A stretch of DNA of 64,000 bases from Nageia nagi (lineage: Eukaryota > Plantae > Pinophyta): positions 9,114,001 through 9,178,000 of the forward strand of contig JBITNC010000002.1 in NCBI GenBank assembly GCA_050084985.1, written 5' to 3'. Below, one piece after another: positions 2,905-50,329 of the stretch (the stretch's first letter is position 1; every line of letters starts with the position of its first letter). The position numbers and the translations under genes were made by a program. The notes below the pieces were generated by a model. The model was not told the origin of the DNA, did no database searches, and worked only from the letters and a program-made list of their open reading frames with translations.

Positions 2905-3846
2905 GTAATGAAACTTAGCATGTGCTAATTTTTATCTTATGATTATTTAAATTTAAAGTAGAAGTAAGTTTTTTTCTTCCTGTTAATTTGTTTGATTGTC
3001 AAAAGCATTCTGGCTATTACATGATTTCAAATTAGGTACATGTCATACTGTGTAGGTTTACAAGAATGCTTAAAAACATTTAAAATGGTATTCCTTATCA
3101 GAATTGTAATATATTTTCTCTTTGTACTCTTACTTTAGATTAGTGTGCTGTAAATACTTCAGGACTTCAAAACATGTTTCTTGTCCATTTACTTGTTTTA
3201 CATGCTAGCAAATAAGTGTTGTCAAAGCTAAATATCAGCTGATTGTATCTACTATCTACTCACAGTGGCTTGTGCCTTGTATAGCTTCTCTCATCCTGCT
3301 AATTGCTTTTGTTTTGATGATTGATTTTTGTAATATAATCATGCAATTTCAGAGCAGGTAAATTTGTGGATACATAGCTTCTTGGGAAAAAATGCAAATT
3401 TTTTTTACCATAGATACTAATGCTAAGATAGAAAACTGCGAAGCAGTCGGGGCTCTGAAATTTATATTTCATTCTTGATAATGTAATACTTTTTGATATA
3501 TTTTATGGAAAAAAATGTTTTCTATATATAAATTGTTTTGACATTGTCATAAAATCAAGACCATAGTGGATGGTGTTGTGACGAAAACACAACATGCCCC
3601 AAAATCCTGCGATTTTGGGGACCCTCAACATGTCATGTATATACTGTGTTCTGGCGTTGTCTTGTGCCACCCAAGTTGTGTAACAAAGACCCAGATTCAT
3701 GGATAAATCCCTCTTTGGTTCTAGCCTTGTTCTTCATCTAGGGTTAGTCATGCTAGGTTAGAAAGTTTGAAATTCCAAAAAATGGCTAAGTTTGGAAGAG
3801 CATAAAGTCGATTTTAGGCAAACTGGGGGGTCTAGGAAGAGTCGGA

Positions 3847-4808
3847 GCATGTTTCAAAAAGACAAAATCTTGTCTTTTGAAACCATGTGACCAGGCTTGG
3901 AGGCCGTCCATACAGGAAGAGAGGCTTGAAGACAGAATCTAGGTACTTGCAAGCCCAACGCATGCCTCCAAGAGACGAAATCTTGTCTTTTCTTGGCAAC
4001 ACCAAATACAGGATGCGGATTGGAGTAGAAAGGAGCATGAAAAATCTAAGGCAAAGGCACAAGAAGGCTGGCGCATGCTTCAAGAAGACAAAATCTTGTC
4101 TTTTTGAACCATGCGACTTGGCCAAGAGAACAAGTTGAGCAAGTTGGAAGGTCGGAAAGTGAACGTTGTTAGGCTCCTAGGAGGCTGGCGTATGCCTCAA
4201 AAAGACAAAATCTTGTCTTTTTGAACCATGTCCCAAACCTAGAAGGGCTTCCAATTCGAGCGAAGGTGAAAATTTTGACAAGTCGAGAACCCATGAAACC
4301 CAAGACCAACTCAAGCATACCTAGAGGGGCTGTCGCATGATCTCAAAAAGACAATTCTTACTTTTTGAGGCATACGCCAAGCCCAGAAAGTCTTCAGGAT
4401 CTGAGAAAGACAAAAATTTGGCTAAGTTATAGCACTTAAGGATCAAATTCCAAAAATTAAGCCATTTGGAGGTTGGCGCATGCTTCAAAAAGACAAAATA
4501 TTGTCTTTTTGAACCATGCAACCAGGCTAGATGGGCAGGCAAGGCTAGCGCATGCCTCAAAAAGTTACAAACTTGACTTTTGGAAACATGCGCCAAGCCC
4601 ACAGGTTGCCTAGGTTGAGATGAAAGATCAAAATTGATAAGTCCAACCGATAGAGAGGCTAAAAATCAGGAGAAATCAGGTTACTGGGTGAGTTTGGTGA
4701 TCAAGGCAAGCAAACATATAGGTAGGAGAACCAACATTGGAGGCATACTCATCCCCAAGGCTAGTGCATGGTTCAAAAAGTCATAATTTTGTCTTTTTTT
4801 TTTCATGT
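3847..4808. repeat. Array of eight ~42-bp palindromes with divergent spacers
   Basis: Consensus GCATGCTTCAAAAAGACAA-AATC-TTGTCTTTTTGAACCATGC; copies start at 3847, 3960, 4073, 4190, 4335, 4478, 4550, 4766. Confidence 0.92.
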
Positions 4809-4967
4809 GCCAAGCCAGATTGACCGTCAAAACCCAAACGGTTGGGCACAGGTGGCTTTGTGTGAGTTTTTGGGCTAGCACACATCTCGAGGTCGGCTAG
4901 ACGGATGATTAAGATTGTGTCTGTCAGTAACCCTAGCCAACTAGGGCAAGTTGGAAGCTAAATGGGC

Positions 4968-4975
4968 TATAAATA
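4968..4975 (+). promoter_or_regulatory. TATA box of the embedded ORF
   Basis: CTATAAATA followed by a pyrimidine-rich leader, ~225 bp upstream of ATG 5198. Confidence 0.6.
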
Positions 4976-5197
4976 CAGGCCTAGGGACCTCATATTCTCA
5001 AATTCAAAACTTGCTCCTCTTCTGCTTTCGCACCAAGATAGCAACAAATTACAGATTTTTGTGCTTGAACATTATCATTCGTGCATCCTAGGGCTTGCAC
5101 AAGCACTTGAGAGGCTAGCTACCGCCACATGGCATCTTGTCCGCTTGGAAACCCACGCACAACCCTTGAGGAGCAACACTACAAGCAAGAACACACC

Positions 5198-8100
5198 ATG
5201 ACATCCTCTAAGGGTAATTCAGCTTCTGACTTCGCTAGGGACCTCAAACGGTTGAAACAGGATTCCGTCATCTCCATTTGTGAGAGACAACAAGCCCTTC
5301 CCCAAGGGGCCAAATTCTCGAGGAACAGTTTTGCAACCATCGGAGATACAGATTGGCAAAACGTTGACCCTATGCAGATGAGGGAGAGCATTCGGGGCAT
5401 TCCTACAACTGACCTGAAGTAGGACATTGTCTTCTTCTCCAGACTCCACTTGCGCATTCGTCCCATTCACAACTCCATTCCTTGAATTGTGCATGGAAGT
5501 CAGTCACCACTAGTAGAAGGGAGAGAGAGTCATTTGAGATATCAGAGGAAACATCACTATGGACTTCCATCCCGAAGCTATCAACGCAACATTTTAGTAG
5601 ACTTCTGAGGGTGATTATGAGTATAGCGAGGCTAGGTCACTAGCATGCTACAAGGAGACTCCCAGGGCAGCCATCGCTATCAAGAGCTGGATGCTGGAAG
5701 AGCATCATGGATTGAAGGGAAATGCGCTCATCAACGCTCCTCACATCGACTTTCATCTTGCAATCGAGTTGATGATCCTTATGCTATCCAGGGTCCTCAG
5801 GAAAGAAGATGCTTCAAAGTTCAGGAAGGAATTCTTCGGGTTCATCCTTGAGATAGCTAGAGGAAGAAGGATCCTATGGAGCAAGGTGTTAAGCGACACC
5901 ATAGCTGATCAATTGTCGTCCATAGGCACCACTTGCAAATTCTACCTTAATTCATACTTGGTGTACATGTTGCTTCACGGCAAGTACAAAGCTATAGCGC
6001 AAGGTGAGACGACTTGGATAAAAAGGGAGACGTATTCCATCTGGAGGTGTTACCCAAAATGGAAGTTAAAGAGAAGGTGGGATAATTTTGTGATGAAAAA
6101 CAATGGATGAGAGTACAAAAATATACAAGAAGTTTAAGGGAGAGATCACGGTTGCTCGGATCTCCAATTCAGCCTAAGACACTTTGAAGAAGCACAAGGA
6201 CTTTTTCCTCCATCACCAACACTTCTCCTACATTCGTATACATGGATCAATCATACAACCCTATCAGTTGCCAAGGTTCGTGAGCAACAGGATATTGTTA
6301 ATGGAGATGATGAGGCAATTGGCCTTTCTACACGAACAGGTATGGCAGAAGAAATCGACCATGCCCAATCTCTTGATTGCCGTGGGAGAGTATCAGTGTA
6401 AGTTCTGGATAGATGTGGATACCATGAAAGAAGAGTTGGCTAGATATACCTCTAGGAAGATGTCGACAGCCGACCATTATGATCCAAATCACAAGATGCA
6501 CTCATTCTTCATGAAAGAAATGAAGAAACCTTATGAGCATAAACCAATTGTAGACGAGGAGCCTTTCTCGGAATATTAGCAATGAGGTAGAAATGAAGAA
6601 GATAAGGGAAAGGGTACATAAGGATGCCAATGATCAGCAACACTGTGTGGAAGCTACAATCAACAAGAGACTCTGGCAACACCAGGGAAGAAGACCTCAA
6701 GAGTCTACTTCTAGGGTCACACAATTCCCTCCAGTAGGTGAGATACCAGTTGGACAATATGCATCCGTGCATGGCAAGAATCCAGTCAAGTAAGTTGTAC
6801 AACAGGTACAAGCCACTATGGATGAGCATGACGCAAGGGAGTTAGAGCATGTGGCTACAAACAAGGTAGTGAGATGTGTGAGAAATAGACATTAGGATCC
6901 TTCTCCGCCACCTATACCACCTAGAGCCACAAGAGTTGTGCCTTCACTTGTTGTTCCACCATTCGCGTCGTCAGCTTCCAGTCCATCATACTAGCCTGAT
7001 GAAAATCAAGAGGAAGGGGAGGTTGAAAAATCACAAGATGAACAAGAAGTGAATGCAACCTAGGAGGAGAAGATCCCAGATGCACAATAGTAGGATGAGT
7101 TTGTAGAGATATTGGGAGGGACCCATAAGCCAGTAACATCAGAGCCATCTATAGGGAAGGACATGGACCTAGTGTCGGAGATAGTACAGAAGGGAGCTCG
7201 ATTGAAGAGAACTCCGCAGTCACAGGCCATAGAAGCTCCAGGTGAATATGATGAGCAAGGAGAGAGATTCTTTAAGAGACTAAAGAGAAGTATTGTTACT
7301 GTTCATGAGGCCCTTGTGGACACTTATCAGCCATCATCTACGAATGAGTGGGGTGTCGACATGGAGGAGTGTCTTGATGTATTTAACATGAATGTCGGGG
7401 AGGAGTTTGAAGCGAAAGAGAAGAGTGATCATCATGGAGAGAGCTCCACTCGTTCAGGGAAGACCCAGACATATGTGCATTTAGTTGATAATGCCATACA
7501 CATCAAGATCATAATAGCTAATAAGGAGAATCCACAACGTCCCAAAGATCTCAAGTAGATCAACCAAATCATCAACACAGGTTCGATTGGTTTGGTTGGC
7601 CGGAAACATGCAATCATCTCCAACGCGAAGGCTATCACCAAGGATGTTATGATGAAAGACAAGGAGATCAAAAGCCTCAAGAAGGAGTTAGATGCATAGA
7701 AGAAGTTGACTAAAGAGTTAGAATTAGCTAAGGTACCCATAGAGGAGCTTCGAAAGATTAAACCGCTCAAGGAGGGTATGATTGCAGTTAAACAAAAGCA
7801 TATAGATGAGGTCTTTATAGGAGTACAATAGTTTACCAGGGCATTCGAAGAGCAAAAGCTCAAGGACATCGTCGTGAAGAGAACCAATTTTCTCAGGATT
7901 TTGGATTTTAGACGGCTTATGATCATGTAGTTTGAGATGACATGGAATCAGAGGCCAGAAGATGTGAAGTTTTGTGAAGAATATTGGTTCTATTTGGTTG
8001 TGGTTAACCAAATAGCCACCCAATTCCAGGAGGTGCAAAAGGATGTTTCGAAGCTCAACAAGGAAAACACTTATCTTGAACAGATGGAGTTCCAGGTGAA

Positions 8101-8407
8101 GTTTCTTGACGATGATGCGTCCATCTGGGACAAAGACCTTGTAGTGGCGGAAGTGAGGTACTTCCTTCACAATTTGATCATGACTGAAGACATCAATACT
8201 TTCCAAACTGGTAGTCGCTTGGCGCATTTGCTCAAAGCTTACACGCGGAAAAAAGATATGCTTAGGATTGTGGAGAAGGTAGAGCACAGCGCGGTGAAGA
8301 ATGGGCCAAAACTCTTCGAGATGCTGCATGGATTGGAGCTTACGGCCAAATTCTTGGATGATGACTTTAAGGGACGTGTTGAGGCGTTGGGCCCACCAAC
8401 TGCCTAG
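5198..8407 (+). pseudogene. Decayed ~1,070-codon TE accessory ORF (N-terminal Transposase_32-like region by inference; C-terminal coiled coil)
   Basis: Colinear + strand fragments 5129..5422, 5691..6110, 6184..6579, 6593..6793, 7112..7558, 7937..8407, broken by stops and frameshifts. Motifs RGRRILWSKVLSDTIADQL, FYLNSYLVYML, YIRIHG..QPYQLPRF..EMMRQL; K/E-rich heptads from ~7640. Confidence 0.75.
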
Positions 8408-8622
8408 TCATATTATTTGTTTTTTTATCATATTTCATACTTATTTTGGAGAAATTTTACTTTAATTGTGAATAAATTCTTGAGTTTGTGATGGATGAGG
8501 ATTTGCTCCCACAAACTTGGATGACATCTTGTAATATCATATGGCGTATTTTTGTTGGACCATACTTTATTTCTTGGAAATTGCAATTAGGGTTAGGGCA
8601 ACACTTAGGGTTGCTCCAAAAC

Positions 8623-8630
8623 TATATATA
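8623..8630 (+). promoter_or_regulatory. Second TATA, likely the canonical LTR promoter
   Basis: CTATATATAG preceded by TTAGGG/telo-box-like motifs (~8587-8610), ~750 bp from the CAACA end. Confidence 0.5.
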
Positions 8631-10896
8631 GCCCATTTGGGCTCATTTGTAGGGGATCAAACATGTTTTTGCAGATTGGGCTACTTACATAATTCTTTCA
8701 ATTTTGCAAGTTTTCCCTTTTTGCAATTGTGATATAATTCCAAGAAATTGAAGTGAGCTTGTTTCATTTGGGACTATGAAAGTGAATGAGTGTTACATTT
8801 TTATGCTATCTTGAGTATTTGGGACATTTTATAAACCTTGTTGGTGGATAAAAGAATGTTTGTATATTCTTCGAAATGTTTCAAGAAGTGTTTGATTGTA
8901 AAGTTTCATAGTTTGCATAAGGGACGTTCGTTGTCACCTTTCAAGTTGGATTTGGGGTGCATGGAACCTATGCCAAACCTGCACAAGTTCGGTCTTAGAT
9001 GGTCATACTAATTGGTGAGAACATTTCCCTAGAGCTGAATTCATATATCACCGTCTTGTCACAACCCTTTTTCTTTATTTTCTATTTCTTAGCACGGCTT
9101 TCGCAATAGACCTTTTTTCTTTTTCTTTGAGAAACAACCTTTCCTGGATTAGGACACTTCATTTCCTTGACTAACAAATTTCATTTGAGTTGGTGATAGC
9201 TTCAAACATCTCCACCTTATCACCTGAGTGAACCCTTGCACCCTCCATTTTCAAACCTTTGAGGTACAAGTCCTCATAGCGGGTAGGAGTCACACCCTAC
9301 CACTTAGGTGTTGGAGTCTTTCCAAAGGCCTTGTGATACCATTTGCCAATCAGCAAGGGTAGGAAAGAAAAAGCCCCCAACAGATGGCAGCCAATATGAA
9401 GCGTCTATGATTCCATCATTGGTGTAAGCTTCTTTTAACACTGTTACCAATTTGTCTTTTTATGACCTCTTTCAGCATTCATATTTCCTCCCTAATAGCA
9501 GTCTGAGACCCCACGGACTTCCAAAGATAACTATTAAGATTGTTTAATATGACCTTCTATGCTGTTTGTCACATGGGTGTTGTGCATTTGTTGAGGACTG
9601 ATTCTGCAATTCCTTTCAAATGTGAATTTCACTTTTTTTGTTGGTTTGTCAATTTGGCAATCTCAAACTAAGGCTTTTGCAGTAGCAACCATACCTAGAA
9701 GTTGGAACCATTTGTTTTGAGCAAGGCAACAAGATTGGGCCTATTGCATATAGATCAACATGTATCAATGTGTGAATATTCTTGCAACCATACCTAGAAC
9801 CATTTCTTTAGTGCATTCATATATTTATGTAACATGAATCGGTGATGCCATTATTTCTAAGAAATAATTTCTCCCTTACCCTGTAAATATCAGGAAGCCT
9901 GCGAAGAAGCTTTGGTTGAGCATAATGATAAAATAAATGTTACGCTGAATTCTAGCTTGAGACATCACAGAACCTGGTTTTCTTATAATTTGGTGGAGTG
10001 TTTCACCCTTTTCTTCTTCTTTAGCTTCTTTGTTGTTTATTGGTTTACTTTCGAGTAGACTTCTGAATGGGCAATATCTTTCTGGCATTGATCTGCACAG
10101 GATGGGTTCACTTCATATTTGTTAACGATGATGACTCCAACTCGCGGTGGGTCCATCGCTGATTGCTCCAGATTGTAAATACACTGTCGCCAACCTTTCC
10201 ACAGTTGGAGATTGTTTGAAGATTTATACCAGGCTGTCCACAGCCGCATTGTATTGAATGCATAGACTAATCCATGTTGTCTATACCTGGATTGCTATTG
10301 TAAACAGTTGCAGAATTGCAATTATAAATACATGTATTGAGTGTTTGATTAATACAATAAAACCTCTGTTTTTCCTCTTGCAATTCTCTTTCTTGTCCTA
10401 ACAGTGGTACCAGAGCCAGTTGTTGTGAGGTCTTGGCGAGAGAGATTGAGCTGGGAGGAGAGAAGGCGGATCGTTTGGACCCAGCCCCGTTGGGAAGTTG
10501 TGTAGTGAGCACCTTGAGAGAGTCGGCTCTAGATGCCAAGATGGCTGGTGTGGCCATGGGGCGTGAGTATTGAGCGGCTGTTGGGTGTGAGCAGATCCGG
10601 GCAGAGGAGTGTGCATGCAAATCAGAGTGAGTGTCTGGTGGCTTAGACATGTGCTCCTTTCCAGGGTTGTTGTGCTGCATTGTGAGAGGAATGTTGCATG
10701 GGCAAGGGTGCTTGCCATTGAATGCTGAGTGCGCAGAGGTCTGTGTAGAAACGCAAGGAATGGACTTTGGGGCAGATTGGCATGAACAGATCTCCCTATC
10801 CTGCTCGCTGTTGGATGTGTTCTGGAAAGCAATCTGAGCTGTGGACATTCATGTTCTGTTGTTGTGTTCTGATTAGACACAATAGCGTTGATAGTG

Positions 10897-13800
10897 TGTT
10901 AGGATCCTATATTCTAATATTTTAGTGTTAGTATTAGTTATTTTAATTAAATTGTCGACCTATATTGTAAATTGTAATATTGTGATTGTAAGGGCAGGGC
11001 CCGATTTTGCATTATTATGAGGGATAGGGTTAGTATATTATAAATAGGTGGAAGTGTGTGGAGAAATGGATCTTGAACATTGTTTTTCACTTTTGGAGTT
11101 GTAAGGAGCTAGCCCCCTTGAAGTGGCCAGTGATTATGTTACTATTTAGTAAAATCCTATCTTTGTCTGCTTATTGTTGCTATTTCGTGTTCTATTATCA
11201 GCACATGCTCTGTTATTTCCATTAGATTAGTTGTCATTTCATGTTCAAATTGATATTCATTTACATTTCTACAATATTTCCCTTTTATATTTGTAGCATC
11301 GTATCATCTGGTATCAGAGCTCTTTCTAGGGCCATTCTGCTGCAAGAATTTTTTTTTTTAGAGGTCTAAGCTAGAAATCTTGTACTGGGGGTTTTAAAAT
11401 ATCTAGGAGGATCTGTCGTTTTTGGCTAAGCACACTTGCCCATAAAGCTGTGTGAAGTGAGGTGCAAAAAACTCTGCATCAATACCCAGGCCTTAGACAA
11501 AACCCTATACGGAATCGGACTCCATGTATCGAAAGGTATATCGGAGACTATCTAGGCTATAAACGGAAACTAGGTAGGAAGCTATGTCGGCCATCTGTAA
11601 ATTGTAGTGCACCAGCAAGTGTCGCTGGAAAGTTACTTGTCACAGAAGCCATCTTCGCAGCCTCTTTCCTTGCGAAAGTTGGATAGGAGAGGTGTTTAGA
11701 CAAGCTTACAGAGCACATAATCCTTACCCTAGAATTGTTCCTTCATAGAAAAAACCTTAAATTGGGAGGCAGAATGTATGACTTGCAGTTTTTCAGAGCC
11801 GCCAAAAATAGCAGTTCAGAGGCAGCAAAACCTTTAGAGCTAAATAACTAAAAATATGTACTGTTTCAGCATTTGTTAACAAAAACATTGTCCGGAGTTT
11901 GAAAATCATCATCGGGAGACCCAGCCCATTGCGATCGTCTTTTTGAGCTGATCGTTTTGGTATATTAGACCCATACACTTTTTTGGGCACTTTCTAAAAA
12001 TAGTTTCTAAAAATAGCAATTTCCAGAAATAATAGTTTCAGAAATGGCACCTGAGACAAGATCAGAGACAGTAGCACAAGTTGATTCTACCATGATGACA
12101 TTTCAGACTATGATCCAACAAATGGCAGATACACTTACCGGCACATTCAGGTTGAAATCCGACAACTATAGACCCAAATACAAACCATTGATAGTAAGTG
12201 TGACAGTGTCCAACTAAGTATCATTCATACCAACAATGCATCCAATTCACAGCAGTTAGGGCAGTTAGGAAATCCACAGAGGTATCATTATAACTTTCAA
12301 GGCCAACAAGGTGGTTTTATTCTTCCCCGCACAACCAAATTGGATTTTCCCTGATTTGATGGAGATGATCCCACTGGCTGGATTTATAAGTTCGAATAGT
12401 ATTTTACATTGAACCAAATTCCAGAAGATTTGACGGTGCCCATGGCAACTTTTCATTTGGACCATGAGGCTCTCCAATGGCACCAGTGGTACTCAAAAAC
12501 TCATCCTGCTCCTTCATGGGATGAATTTACTCAACAATTATTGATCCGTTTTGGTCCTAGTGACTATGAAGATTTCACAGGCGCATTGACCAAGTTACGT
12601 CAAGCCACAACAGTCAAAGAATACCAAAATCAGTTCGAGAAACTAGCAAATCACACAGAGGGGTTGGATGACACATTTTTCACAAGTTGTTTTATTAGTG
12701 GATTAAAGGAAGAAATTAAACCAAAGGTCAAAATGTTTAATCCAAAAACTATGATGGATGCTATTGCTTTGGCAAAGCTTGCTGAAGATAAGGCCATTGC
12801 TCATTGATGAAATGTAAGGCTCCCATTCACAAATACACATAATAATTCCCATTCCTCTAATAACACAAGTGCCCCACCACCAAATCGCACAATGCAAACT
12901 AAGAAGTTGATGTGGGAGGAAATGGAAGAGTGTCGAAAGAAAGGTTTGTGCTATAATTGTGATGAGAAATTTGTTCGTGGTCATCGTTGTACTCAACAAA
13001 AGTTATATTTGCTTGATGTTGATGTTCCTAGTGAGGAGGAATATGAGAGTGCATCCGAAGAGGCTACAAAGGAAACTCCAGATGAGGAGGCCTCGGTTAT
13101 CTCTTACAGTGCATTGGCAGGAATTACTACCCCACAAACTATGAAGGTCAAAGGGTTTTTTAAAAAGCGCACTCTCATCATATTGTTGGATTCGGGAAGT
13201 ACTCATAATTTCATTGATTCATGGGTGGCTAAGGCTGCTGACTGTTACATCCACCCTACAAATAATTTTGAGGTTATGGTTGGTAATGGAGGAAAAATAG
13301 CATGTAAAGGCACATGTCAAAATGTCAAACTGAGCACGGGCCACTATACTTTGAAAAGCGACACGTATGCTTTACCACTTGGGGATGTGATATAGTTTTG
13401 GGGGTGCAATGGTTAAGGACTTTGGGCACCGTGCAGTGGAATTTTTCAGAGCTATGGATGACCTTCAAGATAGCCAAACAAGAGCATACTCTCAGGGGAT
13501 TACAGGTTGGACCTTCACAAATTGTGAGCTCCCATCGCATGGAAAAGATCCTACGGAAAACTGGGAAGGGAATGCTGGCACAATTATCCTCTTTAGCAAT
13601 CATCAAATTTGAAGTCACAAAGCCTAAGGACCTGCAGCCCATCTTGAGTAAGCATGCACATACCTTTGAGGAACCAACGGGCTTACCACCCCAGCGATCT
13701 CATGATCATGCTATCCAGTTGGTGTCGGTAAGTCAACCACCAAACATTCGTCCTTATTAGTATCCTTGTTTGCAAAAAAATGAAATTGAAAAATTGGTTC

Positions 13801-14977
13801 AGGAACTGTTGGATGCAGGAGTAATCCGACCTAGTGTAAGCCCATATTCTTCTCCAGTTATATTGGTTTGTAAGAAAGATGGCTCATGGCATATGTGTGT
13901 GGATTTTAGGGCCCTCAACAAAATTACCATCAAGGACAAATTTCCGATACCAATCATTGACGAATTATTGGATAAACTGCATGGGGCAAGATATTTTTCC
14001 AAGTTAGACCTGCGATTTGGGTATCACCAAATCTACCTCAAGGAGGAGGATATACCAAAAATTGCATTTCGCACTCATGAAGGCCATTATGAGTTCTTGG
14101 TCATGCCTTTTGGCCTCACAAATACTCCATCCACATTTCAAAGTTTAATAAATCAAGTGTTTCATTCGTTCCTCAGGAAGTTCATTTTAGTTTTCTTTGA
14201 TGATATCTTGATCTATAGTAAGACATGGTAGGAACATGTGGCCCATGTTGACCAAACCTTACAAATTTTGAGGGAACATCGGCTATATGCAAAAAAATCC
14301 AAATGTTCAATTGACAAGAGGGAAATTGACTACTTAGGCCATATGATATCCGAAGAGAGAGTTAAGGTGGATCCACATAAGATTATTGACATGCAGAACT
14401 GGTCTTTTCCTACATCTTTGAAAAGTCTCCAAGGATTCTTGGGTTTGACAGGCTATTATAGGAAATTTGTGAAAGATTATGGTAAGATTGCAGCACCTCT
14501 AACAATGTTGTTGAAAAAGAATGCATTCCAATGGTCCCCTCAAGCTGAGGCAACTTTTCTTAAGCTTAAGGATGCAATGTGTACCACTTCGGTATTGGCA
14601 ACGCTAGATTTTTCTAAAACCTTTATGATAGAAAGTGATGCTTGTGGAGTAGGAATCGGGGTAGTATTGATGCAGGAGGGGCGTCCCTTGGCGTTCACTA
14701 GTAGAGCACTCTCTGCTAAAAATTTGGGTAAATCCACCTATGAAAAAAAATGCTTGCCATCATTCACACAGTTCAACACGGGAGACCATATCTCATTGGC
14801 TACCATTTCATCATCCTCACAGATCATCAAAGTTTGAAATTTTTTATTGACCAACGTGTTTCTACGCCCGAGCAACAAAAATGGGTGACCAAACTACTGG
14901 GGTATGATTATGAGATAGTATACCGTAAAGGTAAAGAGAATGTGGTTGCCGATGCTTTGTCCAGAAAATTTGAAGAT
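10897..14977 (+). mobile_element. 3'-truncated Ty3/Gypsy chromovirus-type (Reina-like) element: LTR, PBS, gag-PR-RT-RNase H
   Basis: LTR 10897-11306 (TG...CA, TATA ~11040); PBS TGGTATCAGAGC 11309-11320; ATG 12044. Motifs [50 protein letters not shown]. No integrase or 3' LTR. Confidence 0.9.
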
Positions 14978-14978
14978 T

Positions 14979-17900
14979 AGGTGTATTTTCTTGTTGTGCA
15001 GCCTTCCTGATACATGGGATAATCTGATCATTGTGATTAGTGGGAGCACTAAGATTGATGATTTGAAGATAGATAACATTGTGGGGCAGTTCTTGTAGGA
15101 GGAAGCAAGAAGAAAGACTGTGGAGCCCACAAGGAGTGTTGAAGCATTTGACTGTGAGAGGGAGAAGTAGAGATCGTAGAATCAATGAGAGACCACATGG
15201 CAGAGGACAGAGGTCGAAACCGAGAAGACAATTTCCTAGCAAAGGCCGAAAGCAAGATGTAGAGTGTTGGAAATGTCATAAGAAAGAACATGTTAAGAGC
15301 AAGTGCAAAGAAGATTCTCAGAAGGAGAATGAGGAGTCTACTTCTACTACAGCCATTGCTGAAGAAGGAATAGTAGGCCTGGCTGTAGGCTTGATTGTTG
15401 ATCCCCAGGTGGAGTCATGGTTGACTGACTCATGTGCATCATTTCATATGACACCTCATAGAGATTGGTTCGAGACCTACCATGAGGGTCATTATGGGAA
15501 GGTGTTCCTTGGAGATAGGTATCACTATGATGTGGTAGGTAGAGGCACAATAAGAGTAAGGATGGTAGATTGCAAACCATCGCTAATGTTAGTCATGTTC
15601 TTGGACTAACGCAAAATTTGCTCTCAATAGGTCAATTTACTAGTAAGGGCTTTAAGGTTGACTTTGACAATTATTATTGCAAGCTAGCGAATGATGAGAT
15701 GGTTCTAATTCATGGAATCAAAAAAGGATCCCTCTACAAGCTAGATGCAGAATTAGTGAGTTTTGCAGGTGCAACAATAAATAAAAACTCTTCTGAAATG
15801 ATGCTATGGAACAAAGGGATGGCACACATAGGCGAGAGGAGCTTGAAGGAGATGTGCTCCAAACAACTGGTACGTGGTTTGGAATACAAGAAATTTGATA
15901 CATTGAATTTTTGTGAGTCTTGTGTCATGGGAAAGCAAAAGAGAGTATCTTTCTCTTCTAGCGAGTATAGAAGTGAGAGTGTCTTGGAGTTGGTACAGTA
16001 GGACATCTGTGGACCTATGGAGGTGACATCCATATTATGGTCCAAGTACATGAGTACCTTTATTGATGACTTCTCCTAGAAGTCTTGGGTATTCTTCATG
16101 AAGAAGGATGAAGCCTTGGAGAAGTTCAAGATCTTTGTTGTTGAGGTAGAGAGGTAAACTGGTAAGAAGGTCAAGGTGTTAAGGACTGAATATGGAGGTG
16201 AGTATTGCTCAGAAGAATTTGATGCTTTCTGCAAGATGCATGGCATTGTAAGATTAAAGACCACACCATACACCCCACAACCAAATGGTGTGGCTGAGAG
16301 GTTGAATAGAACTCTCATATAGAAAGCACGAAGCATGCGAGATGCATGCCTTGATAAGAAGTTTTGAGCTGAGGAAGTTCCTAGTGCTAACTATGTAAAT
16401 AACTTTTCTCCAAGTTCAGTTTTGGGAGGTGTAAGTCCACAAGAAAAGTGAAGTGGTAAAAAACCCATTGTTGAGAATCTATGGGTGTTAGGTTGCGAAG
16501 ATTATATGCATATTCCCAAAGAGAAGTGACAAAAGTTGGATTCTAAGTCAATTAAATGCATATTTGTGGGCTATAAGGAAGGTGTAAAAGGCTATAGATT
16601 GTATATCCCATCAGAAAAACATCACACTGTTAGTTGTGATGTAATTTTTATGGAGAATGTTGCAAATGGAAGAAAGAAAGAAGAAGGTGAACTGAAGAAC
16701 GATGATCTAGTCCTCCCATAGATCATGTTCAACCTGTCAGCATTAAGTCTTCCCAAGAGCAATAATATTCAAGAGTTGGTGTACAATCCTCCACTGGTTG
16801 TGAGGATCATCCTTCTGTAGCAGGCCCAAGTGATCAACATGTGACTGTCGATAGTTGGATAGGTGGTAATGATGAACCACCTACGAATGATGATTCATCT
16901 ACAAGAGATGATGTTGGAGGAGATTCCCAAGAAGAAGTGCAATCTAGAAGTGAGGTTTCGGTTGAAGAAAATGATCAATCACTTCAGAGGAGTCATCGCT
17001 AAAGGAGAGTTCTTGATAGGTATGGATATGACTCTAGTGACTTTAAATATTCTACACTTATCGTTCTATGCAATGAGCCTACTAGTGTGAACGAGGCTTT
17101 GAGTGGTGATGAGGCCAAGGAGTGGAGAATGGCAATGGAAGAGGAGATGGAATTTCTCAAGCGTAATCAAACGTTGGATTCGCATCCTAGACCAAAAGGG
17201 AGAAAGTTGGTTGGGTGCAAATGGGTCTTCAAGAAAAAGTATAATCTAGACGGCTCAGTGGAGCGGTACAAGGCAAGATTAGTTGCAAAAATATATACAT
17301 AAGTGAAGGCATTGATTACACAGAGACATTCTCACTAGTGGCTAAAATAGGCTCAATTAGGCTATTGTTGGCAATGGCAGCAGTAAAAGATTGGGAAGTT
17401 GAGCAAATGGATGTGAAGATTGTGTTTCTTCATAGTGAGTTAAAGGAGGGGATCTACATGGAGCAGCCAAAGGAGTATGCAATCAGAGGGAGCAATCGAG
17501 TGTGCAAACTCAAGAAGTCAATTTATGGCTTGAAGCAATCACCGAGAGAATGGTATAAGAAATTTGACTATTATGTGATTGAGCATGGATTTGAGAGGAG
17601 CAATGCTGATCATTGCATATACTACTTGAAGGATTCAAGTAGATTTGTCATCCTTGCATTGTATGTCGATGACATACTTAGCAATTTTCAGCAGGTGATT
17701 CAAAAGGTGAAGACAAAGTTAGCAAAGGAGTTCAACATGAAGGACTTGGCTACGCTTCACTACTTCCTTGGCATTGACGCCAAAAGGGACACGAACAAAG
17801 AGCAAATTATGGATCAGCCAAAGGAAATATGTGGTTGATGTGTTGAAGCAATTTGGGATGGAGATTTGCAAACCTGTGAGTACTCCATTTGTAGTGGGAG

Positions 17901-18840
17901 CAACATTGTCCATGGAGCAATGCCGAAAGATAGTATCTGAGAAGATGAAAATGGCAAATGTGCCATATGCAAGCGTAGTTGGCAAGTTGATGTATGCAAT
18001 GGTTCGTACACGGTTGGATTTGGCTCATGCAGTAGGAGTAGTGGGCCGATTTATGTCAAATCCAGGTCAACAACATTTGATGGTTGTAAAGAGGATCCTT
18101 TGGTATCTACAATAAACAAAGGATGTTGGGATATGCTATGAAGCTGTAGGTGATAGCCAATTGAAAGGATATGTAGATGCTGATTTTGCAGGAGATGTGG
18201 ATGGTTGAAAGTCCACAAGTGCATGTGTTTGAATTGTTTGGAGCATAGAATAAAAAAACTCCATTTAAACGCGTATTTTCTGTTTAAATGGTATTTTTAA
18301 CGGTCCTGTATTTAACCGTATTTTAAAAATACTTACCTTCTATAGTATTTTTTGCCTTTTTTTCTTGTTTTTCCTGTATTTTTCTATCGTTTTTGCTGTT
18401 TTTTTCGTATTTGACCCCTGGCCGTATTTTCAAAAAACTGTATTTTTATTCTATTGTTTGGAGGAGCCATTAGTTGGAGAAGCAAGAAACAAGATGATGT
18501 TGCTCAATTAACAACGGAAGTGGAATACATTGCAGCAGTGGAAGCTTGCAAGGAAGCAGTATGGCTCAGATTATTGTGTTTAGATGTTGGTGTGCAACAG
18601 AATTCAATTCCATTGTGGTGTGACAACAAGAGTGCTATTGACCTTGCTGTTAACCCAAAATTCCACAACAGAACCAAGCACATCAAGGTAAGGTTTCACT
18701 TCATCTGAGAAATGATTGAAGAAGGTGAAGTGAATCTTAAAAAGGTGAAGACTGATGTTAACACAGCTGATGCTTTGACAAAGGCAGTGAGTACCCAAAA
18801 GTTCAAATGGTGTCAAGAACAGCATGGCATAAGTACTTGG
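14979..18840 (+). pseudogene. Copia gag(C-term)-PR-INT-RT-RNase H, degenerate
   Basis: RCIFLLCSLPDTWD; CWKCHKKEHVKSKC zinc knuckle; WLTDSCASFHMT; CESCVMGKQ; integrase core; MDVKIVFLH; LYVDDI; FHNRTKHI. Many stops and frameshifts. Confidence 0.92.
18244..18455. mobile_element. hAT-type MITE inserted in the Copia RNase H
   Basis: TIRs CATAGAATAAAAA / TTTTTATTCTATT; 8-bp TSD GTTTGGAG. Removing the element plus one TSD restores ELFGGAISWRSKKQ. Confidence 0.85.
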
Positions 18841-19778
18841 CCGTCGTAGTCGCCAAGTGGGAGATTGTTAATGATGGCGAATCCAACTGGTGGAGGGCCC
18901 ATAGCTGATCGCTAACCTGTCCACAGTTGGAGATTGTTCTAAGATTTATGCCAGGCTGTCCACAGCCGGATTGTATTGAATGCACAAACTAGTCCATGCT
19001 ATCTATAGCTGGATTGCGATTGTAAACAGTTGCAGAATTGCAACTATAAATACATATATTGAGTGTTTGATTAATAGAACAAAATCTCTGTTTTTTCTCT
19101 TGCAATTTTCTTTCTCGTCCTAATAATATTAAGGTGACACATTCATTTTGTAGTTTTTGTTTGTTCTTCTTTTAATGTTTCGTGGCTTGAGATCCTCTCT
19201 TTCCTTCAGAGTCAGTAGTCCAATCATGTTCTGTTTTGTAAAACTATACATTTTAGTTTGTCCTTCAGAACTGGATCTTATTCTACTGGTACGCATGGTA
19301 ATTGAGCTTGGTTTTTGAATTGTGCATTTTGTACTGCTGATCTAATTTTTATTTGCCTAGGATCATCCACCTATAGATTCATAACTAAGTTGGAAAGCTT
19401 ATTGTCATAAGCAAGTTTGCCATTGGACCTTGTGTTTTTACCATCAAATTATAATGGGTTCAAACCTCACATCATTGGATTATCCTACCATGCCTTCAGA
19501 ACTGTTCAGTCTATTATGGACAAGTTCTTAGACAAAATCATGATATTCCGGGTTTAAGGTGTTCGTGTAATCTCATTACAGTACTGAAGTCAGTTCCAGA
19601 AAAGAGTATCATGTCAGGCTATTTGTTTTTAGCAGATATTGTATATGCTTGTTCACATTCAAAACTGGTTGTCAATGGTAGGGATGTAGATGCTAGAAAG
19701 GTAAAAAACTGAAAACGATGAGTGCTACGAGGACAAACAACCATGCATAGCCTAACTCTCTCAATTTATTATTTGCAG

Positions 19779-20351
19779 GATCTTGATCTTGTTCAGGGGA
19801 CAGAGACGAATGCTTTCGTTAACTTATCAATTAGCAACGAAATTCACAAGAGTACAACAGAGGCTTTGGATGGAATCCACACAAGATCATACCAAAGAGA
19901 TTGCCAGGACATGTCCAATGCAGCAGAACTGGACTTTTCAGAGAGGGCATTGGTAAAGCAAGACATTGGAACAACAATCAAAGATTTTCCTTTGAGTACA
20001 TCATCTGAATTGAAGTATAGTAGTGACAAAAGGATGGAAAGTATTATTTTTGATATGGAACAACATGGATTTCAATACATTCCTCCTACGAGGGATCCAC
20101 CACCTGACTCTTATCTGTGTTATAAAAAGAAAAATACAAGCGGAAAATCTCAGGCTCATGTTCATGCAGATTACTACATTTTGCTTCGTGCATGTGCAAG
20201 AGTTGTAAAAACAAAACCATATGTTCTACATAAGTGTATATTGCAAATTGAGAAACGACTTGGTTGGATTGAAGATCGTATTACTGGAATTTTACAGGAA
20301 TATTTGCTAACAAAATGCCAAAGAGTAGAACAAATCAATAATACAGTTTGA
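19779..20351 (+). CDS. TAF1B: TAF1B terminal coding exon
   Basis: TTTGCAG| acceptor at 19778, phase 0 matching the donor at 2905. C-terminal motifs DMEQHGFQYIPP, HADYYILLRACA, EKRLGWIE; TGA stop at 20349-20351. Confidence 0.88.
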   Translation, partial: DLDLVQGTETNAFVNLSISNEIHKSTTEALDGIHTRSYQRDCQDMSNAAELDFSERALVKQDIGTTIKDFPLSTSSELKYSSDKRMESIIFDMEQHGFQYIPPTRDPPPDSYLCYKKKNTSGKSQAHVHADYYILLRACARVVKTKPYVLHKCILQIEKRLGWIEDRITGILQEYLLTKCQRVEQINNTV

Positions 20352-28337: not shown

Positions 28338-28792
28338 GGGAAAATACCTCAATAAGTTAATAAAATTACAAAATACCTCTCAATCTTTGAAAATTACATA
28401 AATTTCTTTCAAAGTTTTTAAAATTACAAAATACACCTACTTTTTTTCTTGCATCTGGAACATTATTTATTTAATGTGGTATATAACTTCATCATGAAAT
28501 ACCAATTAGAATACTCTTACTTTTTTTCAAAATAATTTAAAATTGTATTAATTTAAAAGTTTATAATAATTTAAAATTTTATAACACTTAAATTTTTTAT
28601 AATAATTAAATTTATAACTTAAAACTTTATAATACGTAAAAGTTTTATAATAATTAAATTTTTTATATTAATTTAAAATTTTACAATGTTCCAAAGCAAG
28701 AAAAAAGTAAAGATATTCTTGTACTTTTGAAAACTTTCAAAAATATTTTTGTAATTTCCAAATATTGAAAAGTATTTTTGTAATTATTCAAA
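28338..28792. mobile_element. Mutator-like foldback MITE, right end eroded
   Basis: Starts GGGAAAATACC; ~110-bp inverted repeats (~28355-28465 vs ~28684-28792); AT-rich core. Confidence 0.6.
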
Positions 28793-29945: not shown

Positions 29946-30984
29946 TTCATTATTGTTAGATCTATAAAGACAAATATTAGTTTTATAAATAAAATATTAT
30001 ATATTTGAGGCTACCTATAAGATAAATCTAGTAGATAAAGATTCATTGCATGAGGAGAGGGATTTTGGTTTTTGAGTTAGATCCAATATGGGTAGAATGA
30101 GATATTAATAGTGCAATGAAAATATTTTTTTAGTAATAAATACCATTTTTCTAGCAATAATAAAACATACTTATCAAAATTCATCAATAATTCTAAAATA
30201 AGATAGAGTTATTTTTATGTTAAATATAAAATATTTGTAATCAATAACTCATATTAATTATATATTATTTATCTTATGTAATTATATCATAGGCATGAAA
30301 TACCTTGTACATCAAATTTTATAGATTACAACATTTATAAATTACTTTATTCAAAATTTTATATCAATGTTATCTCCATTGCTAAATTGTTCTATAATCA
30401 ATAAGTGTATACGTAAGAAAATATGAATTAAATGAGGAAATAGGGTTGATAACTTTTTAATGCTGAATTGGATTTTTAATGGTGTCTTTTGACACCACGA
30501 TAATCAACATAATCCTTGGGGACTTGCTTCTCAGCCTTGGTAGGGATGGTATTAATGAATAAAGGGAGAAGGTTAGTTATAAGGGTCGATAAAGGGTTAT
30601 TCATCAAATTACCTAAGGAAAGGGTTTGTTAAGGGGAAGATGCCAACTATGTAGAAGGTTTATTATTTCGAACCACCACTACTTGAAGCGACTGAGATGC
30701 CCACCCAATCGAAGTAGTTCATGTGTCATATTATGAATCCATTGCAGATTGAGGCTCTATTATATATTAATAAATCTACTTACATTACTATTGAAGGGGA
30801 GAGATATTGCCTACATTATTATTAAAGTAAGGGGATAGCCTTGAACCCTAGTGGGTATGAGTGACTTTCCATTTTTAGTATTATTATTCTTTAAGGTGCC
30901 ATTAATGCAATGGATCGATGATGAGATTGGCATAAATGGATTAGAGATAACCTTAAAATAATAATAGTAGGGGCATTAAAATAA

Positions 30985-31627
30985 AGAAAAATATCCAAAA
31001 TGCCCCTATAATTTCACATAATATCAAAAATACCCTTACTTTTTTTGAAATAACCAAAATACCCCTCAAGATTCAAAAAAAACAAAAACAAATACTCAAA
31101 TAAATGTGGAATAGGAAAACAACTATTAAATTACAAATAATATAGTTTATATGATATAATATATATAAACTATTAATAAAATATAAATATATACAATTTA
31201 AATTAACAAAAATAAAATATAACAAAATATTTAATACATTTTCATGTACATAATTTGTAAAATACATTTATAGTTTAATAAAGTATTTCCTAAATTTAAT
31301 AATTTCACATAATGTTTATAAATTGTATTTATAATGGTATTTTTATAAATTGTATTTACAAGAATACATTTTTAAAATAGTTAAACTATTTTTCATGTAT
31401 TTTGGAAGGATAATATAAAAATATCCTTGTAAAATATCGTCATAATTTTGTGTAATATCAAAAATACCCTTGTAATTTTATAGTTTAATAGAAGTTTTCT
31501 TATTCCATATTTATTCATGTAATTTTTTCTCTTTATTTTTATTTCTAAGGCTATTTTTGATATTTTAAAAAGGTAGGAGTATTTTTGATACTATGTGAAA
31601 TTATGAAGGTATTTTGGATATTTTCCC
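30985..31627. mobile_element. Mutator (MULE)-type MITE
   Basis: Long TIRs AGAAAAATATCCAAAAT... / ...ATTTTGGATATTTTCCC; 9-bp TSD TTAAAATAA (30976-30984 / 31628-31636). Confidence 0.85.
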
Positions 31628-34365
31628 TTAAAATAATTAATAGAAAGGGCATCAACCATAGGATTGAGCTCAACCAAGAACCCTAAATGCAATTATCAAT
31701 GTTTGGATTCCTCATGCATCCACCCCTCCTTGGGAAATGCACCCATTCTGACCTAGTATAAAAGGTAAAAATGGTCATGCTTTCTAAATAACTAGTAAAT
31801 GGAGACCATTTGGTCCTACACGATCCACAAAATCAACGACTACTACTTGATGAATAGCAAGTAGCCTATTCATAGGAGATTCAATACTGGGTGGGATGAA
31901 TAGTCATTGATTTTCAAAAACATTATTTGTAAAAAATGTTTTAAAAATCTAAAAACCTTTGAACAATATGAGTATCAAATTTCAACCCTCCATAGGGTGG
32001 AAAACCCTGGATAAAAAGTGAAATATATACATAGATACATATAATAAATAATAATTAGTTTATATAAAAAAATATTATGAAAGTAAATTATTTTTAAAAA
32101 TAAAATATTGTATAATTAATTTTTTATCATTCTTGAATTAAATTATAATATAATTTTAATGAATTATGATGTATTTTTTATGAGATGCCTCAGTTGTTAG
32201 TTGAGTTGGTCATGTGTTGACCTTGCTACACCTTGTGTCCTATATACAATTCCCACTATGAGACATACATCTTATGTATTGGTCTACTACAGTCATCTCA
32301 TAAATCGTTATTGGTCTTTTGCAAACGTTAATATACTTTCTTTCTTCCTTTCTTAGAATTTGTATATATTTTTGTAATTTATAATATATACTTGTATATA
32401 TTTTTGTAATTTATAATTTATCTCCTTGATAAGGAATTGAAGTGTGCATTTATCTATTTTATTTTGGATGAATTAACTTCTTTGATTTAGGAGGATTTTG
32501 AGTAAGCCAACTAGATACAATGCTAACCACATTTATACCATCATTATATCCTAATCATATTCTAACATGGTGCCTTATGAGGGAATACAATAATATGATA
32601 AATAATGGATTCTGGAGTTATAGTTGCCACCTTGAAAATCATAAGGCTTAGTGGATTTGACACACAAACGATCAAGATGGAAAGACTTATAAACAAATAG
32701 TGCAATTGGATTTTTTAGATGATATTCGATTCCTAATGAATTTTGATGATGTTACTCTGTCCTTCTAACATGTGTGTCATGTGTTATAGGTCCACTCTAG
32801 AAATATCATGTGAATTGGAGTTATCTTTAGTGGGTTTTCCAATTTCTAATACAATCTTATTGATACCTCAAAGGTTTTATTTCTATCACTTCTAAGTGTT
32901 CATGCAAGGAGGCAAAAACTCTTTGATCATTCTAGGGATATGGTTAATGGCAAAGATGATAATGGGGAAAAGAGAGAACCTAGGTTTAGGGTGTATCTTA
33001 GCTATTAATTAGAGAAAATGATAAAGCCTAGGTTTAGACAATTATGTAAAAGTGTAAATTGCAATGTGAATTGAGAAATTTACTGTCAAAAAGTGATGAT
33101 GAATTTGTTGAAGAATATTTAGGGATAGGCCAAATGCATGTGCCTCTTATGTGTGATTAATAAATCGAATGCATAACTCATTTATTGGAAATTAAAAACT
33201 ACTATTGTATCTTTACATGTGAAAAGTGGTCAATAATTTGATCTTTTCATCTTGACTTTTTTAATATAGTTTTAGTACTTTTAATAAAAATGGCAACTCT
33301 TGAAAAGGAACCGTAATTTATTTTATTATTTTTACACATAGAACAAGAAGTATCTAAGAAATTCAATGTTATTTTGTGAATTTTCCATGAGATTTTCAAA
33401 CTTGTATAGTTCCATTAATCTAATTAGAGAGAACTTTCCAAAATATGATACATTCAACAACCATCCTAACTTTTAGGATTTTCAAAATTACATAGGGATT
33501 TCAGACTTTAGCTTTTACTAATTTCTAAATTTTGAGGGAAAAATATAAAAAATATTTATTAAATTTTGGCAATTTCTATAACATAAAAAAGATTAGTTAT
33601 AATATTTAGGTGATTTTTTATGATTAACAATTTTTTATAATAATAGTTTGGCTATTTTAATTTTTACTTTCTTGGAGATGTTTATTTTAATTTTATCTTT
33701 TTTTAAAAATGATTTACATTTTTGGCTATATAACTTAGAACAAATTTGCTATTATAAAATTTTGGTAATTTAGAAAAGCATTCTATTCCTCAAATTATTT
33801 TAGATATCCTAAAAATAGCCTTTTTTCGATGAATCTAGCTTAAAAATAAAGTTGATTACATACAAATACATAATATCTATCCATTATCCCATATCTCTAA
33901 TCTTAGCTCTCATTGCTTTTCCTCAATATATTCTAAGTTCCTTTTTTATACAAGTCTATGACTAGCAAAAAGTCATAATACATCATATTTAGGGTGGTGA
34001 CCTTTCCATGGATAATGATGTTTCTTAACTCTTTGTTAGTATTTTCTAATCATCATTCATTATGCTATAGTGAATCCATTATGTTATTAATTCACTACCC
34101 TTATCATTTAATTTATTTTTTTAATTAATGGGCTGATTTTGTATTAATAAAAAAGTGTGAATTTTATAAGGACCTTCACAAACCTATACATGAAAAGTCC
34201 ACAAATTTCAACTATATACTTCTGCCCATTTGCTGCATTATTATAGTCATAAATTTAAAATAAAACTATCTAAGTTTCTCCACTTAATCTCATTAGCATA
34301 CAATTGCTATTATACTACTAACTCCTAAATACTAGCTAAACAAACTACCTTCCTTGCTAGATACA

Positions 34366-37300: not shown

Positions 37301-38574
37301 GGTAAGCATAAAATAATATTCCAATCCACCAAATACTTGCAAAATGGATTAGTATATGCTAAATAATCTTATTGCTTTGATACCTACATGATCTTTGAAC
37401 TTGTATGCTTATAGCATTTACAAGGGTCTTCACAACATATTTAATGAGATTTGATAATTATTTTTTTTTTAATTTATTTAATTTCCAAAAATAATTATTG
37501 TTGAAATAATTTTGAATTTAACAATATTCAAATTCAAGTGCAAAGAATCTAAGAAAAATAAACCACAAAATAGAAGACTTAAGAATTTACCCTATTTCAC
37601 CCAATGTGGGCTAGTCCAGCTTGGCTCTCTTTTTTATTGTGGTCTGGATATAAGAAGCTCTATAATATTGCATTTACAATACTTCCCAATACAAGGTATC
37701 TTCTCCCAATATTTGAACAATCTATTCTTTACTCACAACAATTCCAAATTCCTAGAACAAGCAAATAAGAATTACAATGCACACATATTGTATTCTCTTG
37801 AAACTTCCACACCATTAAATCCCATATAGTATCTTTTTTATATTAATTTAAGGAGCTATGTGAAAAAATATTAGTTTTTAACACATATTTGAAACCAGAC
37901 CCAAAAAAGCCAAGAACTTTTTTTGGCCAAAAACATAATCTCAACCTCCCTTTGTCTTCTTCCAAAAATTGCACTAAAAACCAATAATATGCTCTCTAGA
38001 AAATATATGGACTATTAAATAAACACTTATAGGATTAACAACATTAAAAAACATCCAAAATATATCAAATACATGCACTTTGCAATTAAATGGGAAGATC
38101 TAGTTACAATGTGCCACTTGGCACCTTGTAATAGGTGATCAAACTTGAGTTGACCAATGGCTTGAGTGATTGGGTTAGTAGTTTTTTCAAAGTGGTTAGC
38201 AATCATACTTGATGGTTTTTGGCTTCCCCAGGTGGTTATCCCCACATGGACCCCTCTAATTCTATGTGGTCCCCTTTTCCACATTGACTTGGCAATTAAC
38301 TCTGCCCAAAAATTTCACATTGGTTTCCACTTCCATAGTGGTGATGACTTGGCGATGAATACCACTTAACATGCCACCCAAATCAAACTTCATAATATTT
38401 AATATTTTTTTAAATTGTAATAATAAATATAATTTTACAAAAACTTTGATATCACATAGAATGCAAAGCAAGCATCGATTTTCAAAATTGTAAGATGTTC
38501 TAGAATCATGGAGATGAGTAGAATCTAGTGAGATAGGTTTGATACTAAATCGAGATGATCCAAATTTTGGATCA
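34366..38574 (-). mobile_element. Non-autonomous TR-GAG-like LTR element with CRM-type TGAT...ATCA ends
   Basis: LTRs 34366-35526 and 37389-38574; TSD ATACA; minus-strand PBS GGTATCAAAGC ~37374-37384; PPT GGGAAGGAG at 35527-35535. The 1.86-kb interior has gag (KFDLPTYDGEIN, CSQCNVDGHIDAKC) and protease (HPYPLGW, PLDVCGIILGSPYL) only. Confidence 0.88.
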
Positions 38575-49687: not shown

Positions 49688-50329
49688 TGAAGGAACTAAT
49701 ATTAACAATATAATTCCTAAACTACCAAGATCATATGAAAGCTCACAATTACATCCAACAAATACACAAAGCAATCTTACAACACAAGATGTAAAATGGT
49801 TCCTCCAACTAGGAGTACATCTACTAACTAGATCTTTACTTCTCTCACAAATACAACTCTCTTAGAATTCTCCTAATCTCAACTCCTACACTTTTATCCT
49901 AGAGCATATACTTACTCCTCAATTGGTGTGTCATTACAAAGAGGAAGCCTTCTATTTATAGGCCAAAATCCCTCCTTGGATGACCTCAGCATGACATGCA
50001 CATCTTTGACCCAAGGGGCATGCTCATGACTTGGAGTGTAAGACAAGTTACATTATTATATTCACTAAAATACTTAAGGTATCAAATAATACCTTTAAGT
50101 ATTAATAAATTTATATAAAATATTTAATACATATATTTACAATAATGCATTATACATTTCAACACTCCCCCTTAATGTAATATTGGGATAGAGCGAGTAA
50201 GAGAAGAAGAAGAAAAAGTAAGAGAGTTCTCTTCCAAACAGATACAATGGAGATGAGAAGTTTGTACATATTTGTGAAGGAAGAAATATCCAATTTGAGA
50301 CTCACTACTTTACCAAATACAATCATTAA
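49688..50329 (-). mobile_element. Inverted third LTR + PPT + ~165 bp 3' UTR of the same Copia family
   Basis: 49688-50164 is the reverse complement of the LTR; CTCCCCCTT follows, then sequence matching ~56490-56654 in reverse. Confidence 0.9.

Follow-up and report, generated by a model that had tools for sequence, protein, structure and literature searches.

We analyzed a 64,000-nucleotide window of the conifer Nageia nagi (contig JBITNC010000002.1, positions 9,114,001 to 9,178,000), in which an intron of a TAF1B/RRN7-like gene holds a 5,809-bp unit with TGTTG and CAACA ends and a perfect GATGG target-site duplication (TSD; Table 1). A first-pass annotation had described this unit as an integrase-type insertion, a giant solo long terminal repeat (LTR) that contains terminal hairpins, palindromes, two TATA boxes and a long decayed open reading frame (ORF). 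Our results showed that the unit is a member of a high-copy repeated family with the same borders.

Table 1. Features of the unit and its host intron (positions in the window).
Feature	Position	Strand	Basis
Whole unit TGTTG...CAACA, putative solo LTR	3574..9382 (5,809 bp)	+ (putative retroelement sense strand)	ends, borders, TSD
Left TSD GATGG	3569..3573		end inspection
Right TSD GATGG	9383..9387		end inspection
Two terminal hairpins	3574-3594, 3597-3620		joint folding z -5.6; loose ends of contigs at 3585/3587
Array of eight ~42-bp imperfect palindromes	3847..4807; starts 3847, 3960, 4073, 4190, 4334, 4478, 4550, 4766		
TATA1 block: TGGGCT motif, then TATAAATA at 4968	4960..4975	+	putative promoter function
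Decayed accessory ORF	5198 (ATG)..8407 (TAG)	+	~1,065 codons, four frame segments
Conserved N-terminal globular domain	5424..6140	+	homolog P0030 predicted to resemble VANC21
Pro/Ser-rich, acidic linker, probably disordered, with basic patch at ~7270-7290	6880..7440	+	composition, translation; putative role
Charged stretch, probably coiled-coil, and conserved C-terminal domain	7640..8404	+	coiled coil suggested by composition
TATA2 block: TATATATA at 8623 (+), inverted TATA1 16-mer at 8638-8623 (-), AACCCTA on - at 8612 and 8594	8588..8650		
T-rich tail ending CAACA, likely R-U5 if sense strand is +	8655..9382	+	
Last intron of TAF1B/RRN7-like gene, holding the unit	2905..19778 (~16.9 kb)	+	splice sites by eye
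Exons of TAF1B/RRN7-like gene	about 867-1769, 2774-2904, 19779-20351	+	

Borders and relatives of the unit

The proposed ends were seen again in the depth of matching contigs, which backed each border independently in four runs. At 80% likeness, contigs of these runs covered every bin from 3514 to 9505 end to end, and their summed depth, which is not a measure of copy number, was 0-0.9 at 3300-3513, 237-2048 at 3514-3727 and 0 at 9506-9700. Finer mapping, also of four runs (three in common with the coarse mapping), showed that depth drops within a few bases of 9382 in 4/4 runs and that the loose ends behind this point are mutually unlike; such mapping may overlook records that overlap the unit end by only ~30 bases. 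Eight listed runs contained 5-14% of the words of the unit, and the chance of a 5-bp TSD match is ~1.4e-3.

The unit has the TG...CA ends, short inverted repeat and TSD of 4-6 bp that characterize a solo LTR, and it stands bare in unique flanks, with an outside depth of about zero and without an attached primer-binding site (PBS), polypurine tract (PPT), gag or pol. Its terminal inverted repeats measure 5 bp only. In agreement with the first-pass annotation, no second LTR was detected in the window: self-blastn revealed no second copy of either unit end and no repeats inside the unit other than the palindromes, and a motif scan found no inner copy of the termini except the 5' hairpin arm. Pfam searches gave no gag or pol match in the four ORF segments and no transposase domain in these segments or in 43 alignment members. 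The TG..CA ends, 5-bp TSD and lack of a transposase set the unit apart from VANDAL and other Mutator-like elements. From its integrase-type ends and the lack of an inner LTR boundary, it is probably an LTR. We rejected the alternative of a decayed PBS starting at the right-hand GATGG, since the DNA behind it is at zero depth in 4/4 runs. Finally, the observed/expected ratio of CHG was 0.26-0.64 in the unit versus 0.96-1.26 in the flanks and CpG was depleted too, as expected for long-methylated plant repeat DNA.

Four metagenome contigs (L001-L004; 4/527 pattern matches) were found to encode relatives of the ORF, the longest related locus measuring 3.9 kb. L002 is collinear with window positions 6620-8920 (69%) and 9065-9385 (76%), and it shares the end of the ORF, the second TATA box and the terminus with the unit before passing into a different flank, which indicates that ORF and 3' end are linked in the family and not in this copy alone. 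In addition, none of the best 15 of 169 joints in contigs skips the ORF. Short inverted pieces of the ORF end lie at both ends of L002, which may be partly chimeric outside the collinear core, and at L002 3063-3450 the copy appears by eye to be inserted in a copia gag-like frame on the opposite strand. Viral contigs yielded no relatives of the unit, 19/19 matches to the hairpin pattern were unrelated, none of six motifs occurred in nine Wegrzyn 2013 supplementary files, and the single match in a prokaryote genome (L005) was rejected as a chance 21-mer in a bacterial contig.

The accessory gene and its predicted fold

The long decayed ORF was recovered with the bounds given by the first-pass annotation. 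Its frame shifts three times (near 5440, 6130 and 6570) and is interrupted by 18 internal stops, and, to judge from these breaks, this copy is a fossil that cannot make protein. Thus, the earlier description of a self-contained cassette held for the order of array, TATA, ORF, TATA and end, but not for a working cassette. Relatives cover 12 of the stops and have a sense codon at 11 of these in at least one relative and at eight in all, suggesting that most breaks postdate insertion; the relatives themselves are decayed as well (4/4).

The first-pass annotation had made its interpretation depend on purifying selection on the ORF. Pairwise NG86 estimates of the ratio of nonsynonymous to synonymous substitution rates (dN/dS) over 6572-8404 were 0.21 against L001 (confidence interval, CI, 0.16-0.28; 591 codons), 0.15 against L002 (0.10-0.20; 563 codons), 0.14 against L003 (0.10-0.21; 312 codons) and 0.33 against L004 (0.26-0.43; 530 codons), with all four upper CI limits below 0.45, versus 0.63-1.22 in the other plus frames. 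Over 5601-6150, for which L004 only was available, the ratio was 0.21 (0.12-0.37) versus 0.92 and 1.10 in the other plus frames. Transversion-only ratios for 6572-8404 (0.16-0.49) were consistent with the NG86 values, and a ratio of 1.04 was obtained in one sub-segment with few sites (L004, 7301-8404). An antisense coding frame was rejected: only one minus frame gave a low ratio (0.22-0.38), and this ratio, from a frame with the same third positions as the plus frame, is always the higher of the two. These substitution patterns indicate that the accessory ORF was a functional gene under purifying selection at the family level.

For the N-terminal domain of the homolog P0030, VANC21 (PDB 9LNK) was both the best fold match and the only full-domain structural match of the predicted structure, at an identity of 7%, and on this prediction a VANC21/PMD fold has a somewhat better than even chance. 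The VANC analogy drawn in the first-pass annotation gains from this resemblance, and its further elements, binding to the array and anti-silencing, are conjectural. A single-sequence structure prediction was unusable (pLDDT 33), no sequence match was found in PDB, the Atlas yielded no usable match, and Foldseek against PDB and viral structures gave no match at E 0.001. The families PF10536, PF04195 and PF03078 (PMD, TRP28 and Athila ORF1) were matched by none of four window segments, 43 alignment members and 11 homologs (E up to 10), and P0030 as query matched only itself. The C-terminal domain had no Pfam match, and a search for longer homologs of this part found none. In the linker, the basic patch (7270-7290) is a possible nuclear signal. 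A mannosyltransferase isoform annotated in Cryptomeria (P0047, XP_057824563.1) starts with ~82 residues homologous to the accessory-protein family, which suggests exonisation of, or a gene-model fusion with, a related element.

Palindromes, TATA blocks and surroundings

The eight palindromes and terminal hairpins of the first-pass annotation were found again, and folding was strong in three of the four palindrome copies tried (z -5.2 to -8.5; -2.3 in the fourth). A strict scan of 3574-5197 detected six hairpins, five in the array and one terminal, versus a mean of 0.45 and a maximum of 3 in 100 resampled sequences. Relatives start with the same TGTTGTG and keep the left arm of the first terminal hairpin (3574-3594), with a different loop. 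The array immediately precedes the putative promoter of the ORF, and few parts of the family are covered as deeply (contigs, four runs). Its palindrome centers are spaced by 113, 113, 117, 145, 143, 72 and 216 bp, i.e., by 113-117 bp first and by multiples of ~72 bp in the distal half. Around this switch (window 4354-4785), relatives show many joints between array copies, and the two observations together suggest that the array expands and contracts. In one contig of run X3, the 3' end of the unit is joined to a palindrome copy at mid-length (joint 9384 to 4196), as if one element had inserted in the array of another.

Both TATA boxes of the first-pass annotation are present, although the direction of the second is ambiguous. 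TATA1 follows a TGGGCT motif, which we take to be site II, and this block is likely the promoter of the ORF. The TATA1 16-mer (4960-4975, plus strand) returns inverted at 8638-8623, with 15/16 identity here and 16/16 in L002, and relatives carry TATTTATA on the plus strand at TATA2; therefore, TATA2 could fire towards the ORF. The TATA2 block is also the best-conserved noncoding 50-mer versus L002 (45/50), suggesting that it matters in whichever direction. Downstream of TATA2, the T-skew agrees with that of two neighboring LTRs of known strand, which weakly favors the plus strand as sense and hence a U3 location of the gene. Behind 8917, relatives diverge or carry extra sequence (window 8917-9065 versus L002 2470-2744; runs X2, X3 and X4, and L002), and this segment may be a subfamily-variable block in the putative U5.

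The host gene was assigned as TAF1B/RRN7-like from matches to PF20644 (E 2e-4) and PF20645 (E 9e-4), both weaker than the curated cut-off. The same intron contains a copia element (10187-19123) with 215-bp LTRs (10187-10401 and 18909-19123, 90% identical), a PBS-like site at 10405, and integrase-region and reverse transcriptase matches. Within it lies a gypsy element with an LTR at about 10890-11307, a PBS-like site at 11309 and gag, protease, reverse transcriptase and RNase H at 12400-14834; self-blastn revealed no second LTR of this element, which looks truncated or chimeric. A link between the unit and this neighboring gag-pol DNA at 12-18 kb was rejected, because this DNA belongs to other elements, which have LTRs and PBSs of their own and do not resemble the unit. 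Elsewhere in the window are two AT-rich fold-back elements (28364-28785 and 30982-31630; 68-70% self-complementary), which resemble miniature inverted-repeat transposable elements, a 1.2-kb direct duplication (34335-35526 and 37358-38574; 84%) and a three-copy repeat of ~480-650 bp in mixed orientation (47524-47999, 49680-50329 and 56488-57138; about 91%).

A candidate LTR-borne gene and its alternatives

Altogether, we propose that the unit is the solo LTR of a high-copy gymnosperm Ty3/gypsy family, the ~5.8-kb LTR of which carries the array, a TATA block resembling a promoter, and a gene, broken in this copy, for an accessory protein; this is predicted to be a DNA-binding protein of VANC/PMD fold that would bind the array and protect the element's promoter from silencing; for this reading taken whole, we regard the chances as evenly balanced. 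A full element would have inserted in the intron, with LTR-LTR recombination the likely event that left one LTR. Given an LTR, the sense strand would be plus with somewhat better than even probability, placing the gene in U3, upstream of a genomic promoter at TATA2, and a gene inside U3 appears to be the likeliest of three layouts. A cassette of accessory gene plus repeats, which in Tat-type elements lies between pol and the 3' LTR, could have been drawn into U3 through a more upstream polypurine tract. More tentatively, and by analogy, an oligomer of the protein might bind the two-fold symmetric repeats and serve as an element-specific anti-silencing or activating factor, acting in trans on family members, including solo LTRs, against methylation-linked silencing. 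It is doubtful, in our estimate, that a complete VANC-type anti-silencing module (protein gene, promoter and palindromic targets) resides inside the 5.8-kb LTR of a gymnosperm family.

Two observations weigh against this proposal. The TATA2 block appears readable on both strands, which leaves its direction ambiguous with respect to a plus sense strand and a U3 gene. More mildly, no shared PBS or PPT consensus was found behind the 3' end (21 contigs, among the eight loose-end groups listed); one would be expected because complete elements are more numerous than solo LTRs in Picea, as stated in a passage of PMC5751070. This family may be solo-rich, or the records may overlap the end too briefly for mapping.

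Genes encoded in U3 are known from retroviruses, where sag of mouse mammary tumor virus and lentiviral nef are each some hundreds of codons long and have the host cell or the immune system as their target. The present gene would resemble these in being carried in the LTR and thus at both ends, with ~1,065 codons here and a putative position in U3. Among plant elements, passages on Retand (Grande, RIRE2; TRP28 ORF) describe an accessory ORF with its own promoter, as for Grande gene23 (PMC7264820), beside repeat arrays in a block of 3-6.5 kb (PMC11963269, PMC7264820), and predict DNA binding for the accessory proteins, with SMC-like domains in some ORFs. However, the Retand block is described there as internal and antisense; the cassettes take up 2.9-6.6 kb from pol to the 3' LTR, the LTRs measure 315-1,194 bp and the lineage was found in angiosperms only (PMC11963269). 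Here, a TG..CA unit bounded by a TSD encloses the block, its repeats are palindromic and PF04195 is not matched. Ogre, TatII and TatIII have LTRs of very large size (reaching about 5 kb) and, like the unit, additional ORFs (PMD in 57% of Ogre), repeat arrays and a 5-bp TSD (PMC6317226), although the unit, at 5.8 kb, exceeds the LTR size of ~5 kb stated for them. For other conifer families, the passages cited give LTRs of 50-1,500 bp in pine (PMC3762812) and, in Gymny, an ORF1 that follows a putative, only partially sequenced 5' LTR (PMC2633040). The 5-bp TSD, very long LTR, extra ORF and array are typical, not diagnostic, of the Ty3/gypsy OTA group (TatII/TatIII/Ogre/Athila), in which TatII and TatIII are gymnosperm candidates for the lineage (PMC6317226 and a passage of PMC13477047).

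In its predicted N-terminal fold, the protein is most like VANC21 (PDB 9LNK) and the PMD proteins MAIN and MAIL1 (passages of PMC5418596 and PMC13547354). VANC21 is likewise a transposon-encoded accessory protein beside repeated noncoding motifs, with a coiled coil reported there and suspected here, and according to a passage of PMC5735166 it acts at motifs amplified in its own element, VANDAL21. In contrast to the present protein, VANC proteins belong to Mutator-like DNA transposons and are called dicot-specific, and the motif of VANC21 is a non-palindromic 9-mer (PMC5735166), besides the identity of only 7%. By analogy, the accessory block would work like that of Retand and Ogre, and perhaps like VANC.

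An unlikely arrangement keeps the giant LTR and takes the minus strand as sense: TATA2 would fire leftwards, U3 would be the ~750 bp from 9382 to 8640, and R-U5 would measure 5 kb and contain the gene in antisense, driven by a promoter of its own, as with the antisense accessory genes of Grande, Retand and Ogre (in a variant, TATA1 is the genomic promoter and the gene lies in sense in U5). This would account for the TATA1 16-mer being exact on the minus strand at TATA2 in L002, for TATTTATA on the plus strand of relatives, which is canonical on minus, and for the AACCCTA motifs and AATAAA (8571) that follow on minus, and the share of elements with an antisense accessory ORF is 60% in Ogre, 86% in Retand and 18% in TatIII. 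However, it implies an A-rich strand through U3 and early R, opposite to 2/2 neighboring LTRs (a small sample), and would require 4.4-5 kb of strong-stop DNA, and TAGGGTT stands shortly before the sense TATA in the neighboring gypsy LTR as well.

It is distinctly unlikely that the unit is a non-autonomous deletion derivative, in which parts of two ordinary short LTRs came together around an internal accessory ORF and the product went on to amplify as a family. One deletion alone would spare a complete LTR and part of the second, and the unit has no such repeat. Two non-overlapping deletions would be required, and reverse transcription is impossible for an element that lacks terminal repeats. 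In addition, a copy with 69% identity has the same layout, and four runs cover this layout from one end to the other. On the other side, the region between the LTRs is where described plant families have their extra ORFs and repeat arrays, the array, own promoter and ORF are the content of the Retand interval between pol and 3' LTR (2.9-6.6 kb), and no PBS was seen behind the 3' end. Little probability also attaches to the gene and array being unrelated, with the palindromes as host-factor enhancers or as RNA/DNA hairpins for packaging or replication, and the protein serving nuclear import, particle assembly or chromatin tethering. The non-palindromic VANC21 motif agrees with this idea, as do the undescribed roles of the Retand and Grande accessory proteins and the PMD relative MAIN, which promotes rather than opposes silencing (a passage of PMC5418596), yet the one structural match over the full domain was to a sequence-specific DNA-binding protein encoded by a transposon, and the array, in a deeply covered part of the family, directly precedes the promoter of the gene. 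Finally, a self-standing TG..CA unit that is not an LTR and was moved as DNA by an integrase or transposase in trans is highly improbable: all copy ends seen lead into unlike flanks and VANC21 comes from a DNA transposon, but the terminal inverted repeats and TSD are 5 bp each, no transposase domain is present, 5-bp TSDs are usual for plant LTR lineages, and the mapping may miss records with a ~30-base overlap.

An exact-phrase literature search for an ORF inside a plant LTR, together with two reviews, returned nothing relevant, which weakly suggests that a gene inside a plant LTR is unreported so far. Such a gene would be duplicated in each element and retained in solo LTRs, so that recombination does not remove it, and it would escape the size limits of LTR finders, and annotation would make it an orphan host gene or merge it with a host gene (cf. 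P0047). The function of the extra ORFs in Tat, Ogre, Retand and Athila elements is an open question. In this family, a gene under selection and a possible symmetric target lie side by side, and the predicted fold points to a DNA-bound anti-silencing protein. Should this fold be borne out, VANC-like proteins would extend beyond the dicot DNA transposons to which they are currently assigned. If the complete module is real, each element would carry two copies of it and each solo LTR one, VANC-like counter-silencing would be older than angiosperms and come from retrotransposons rather than Mutator elements, and the module would help to explain the persistence of retrotransposons in giant conifer genomes.

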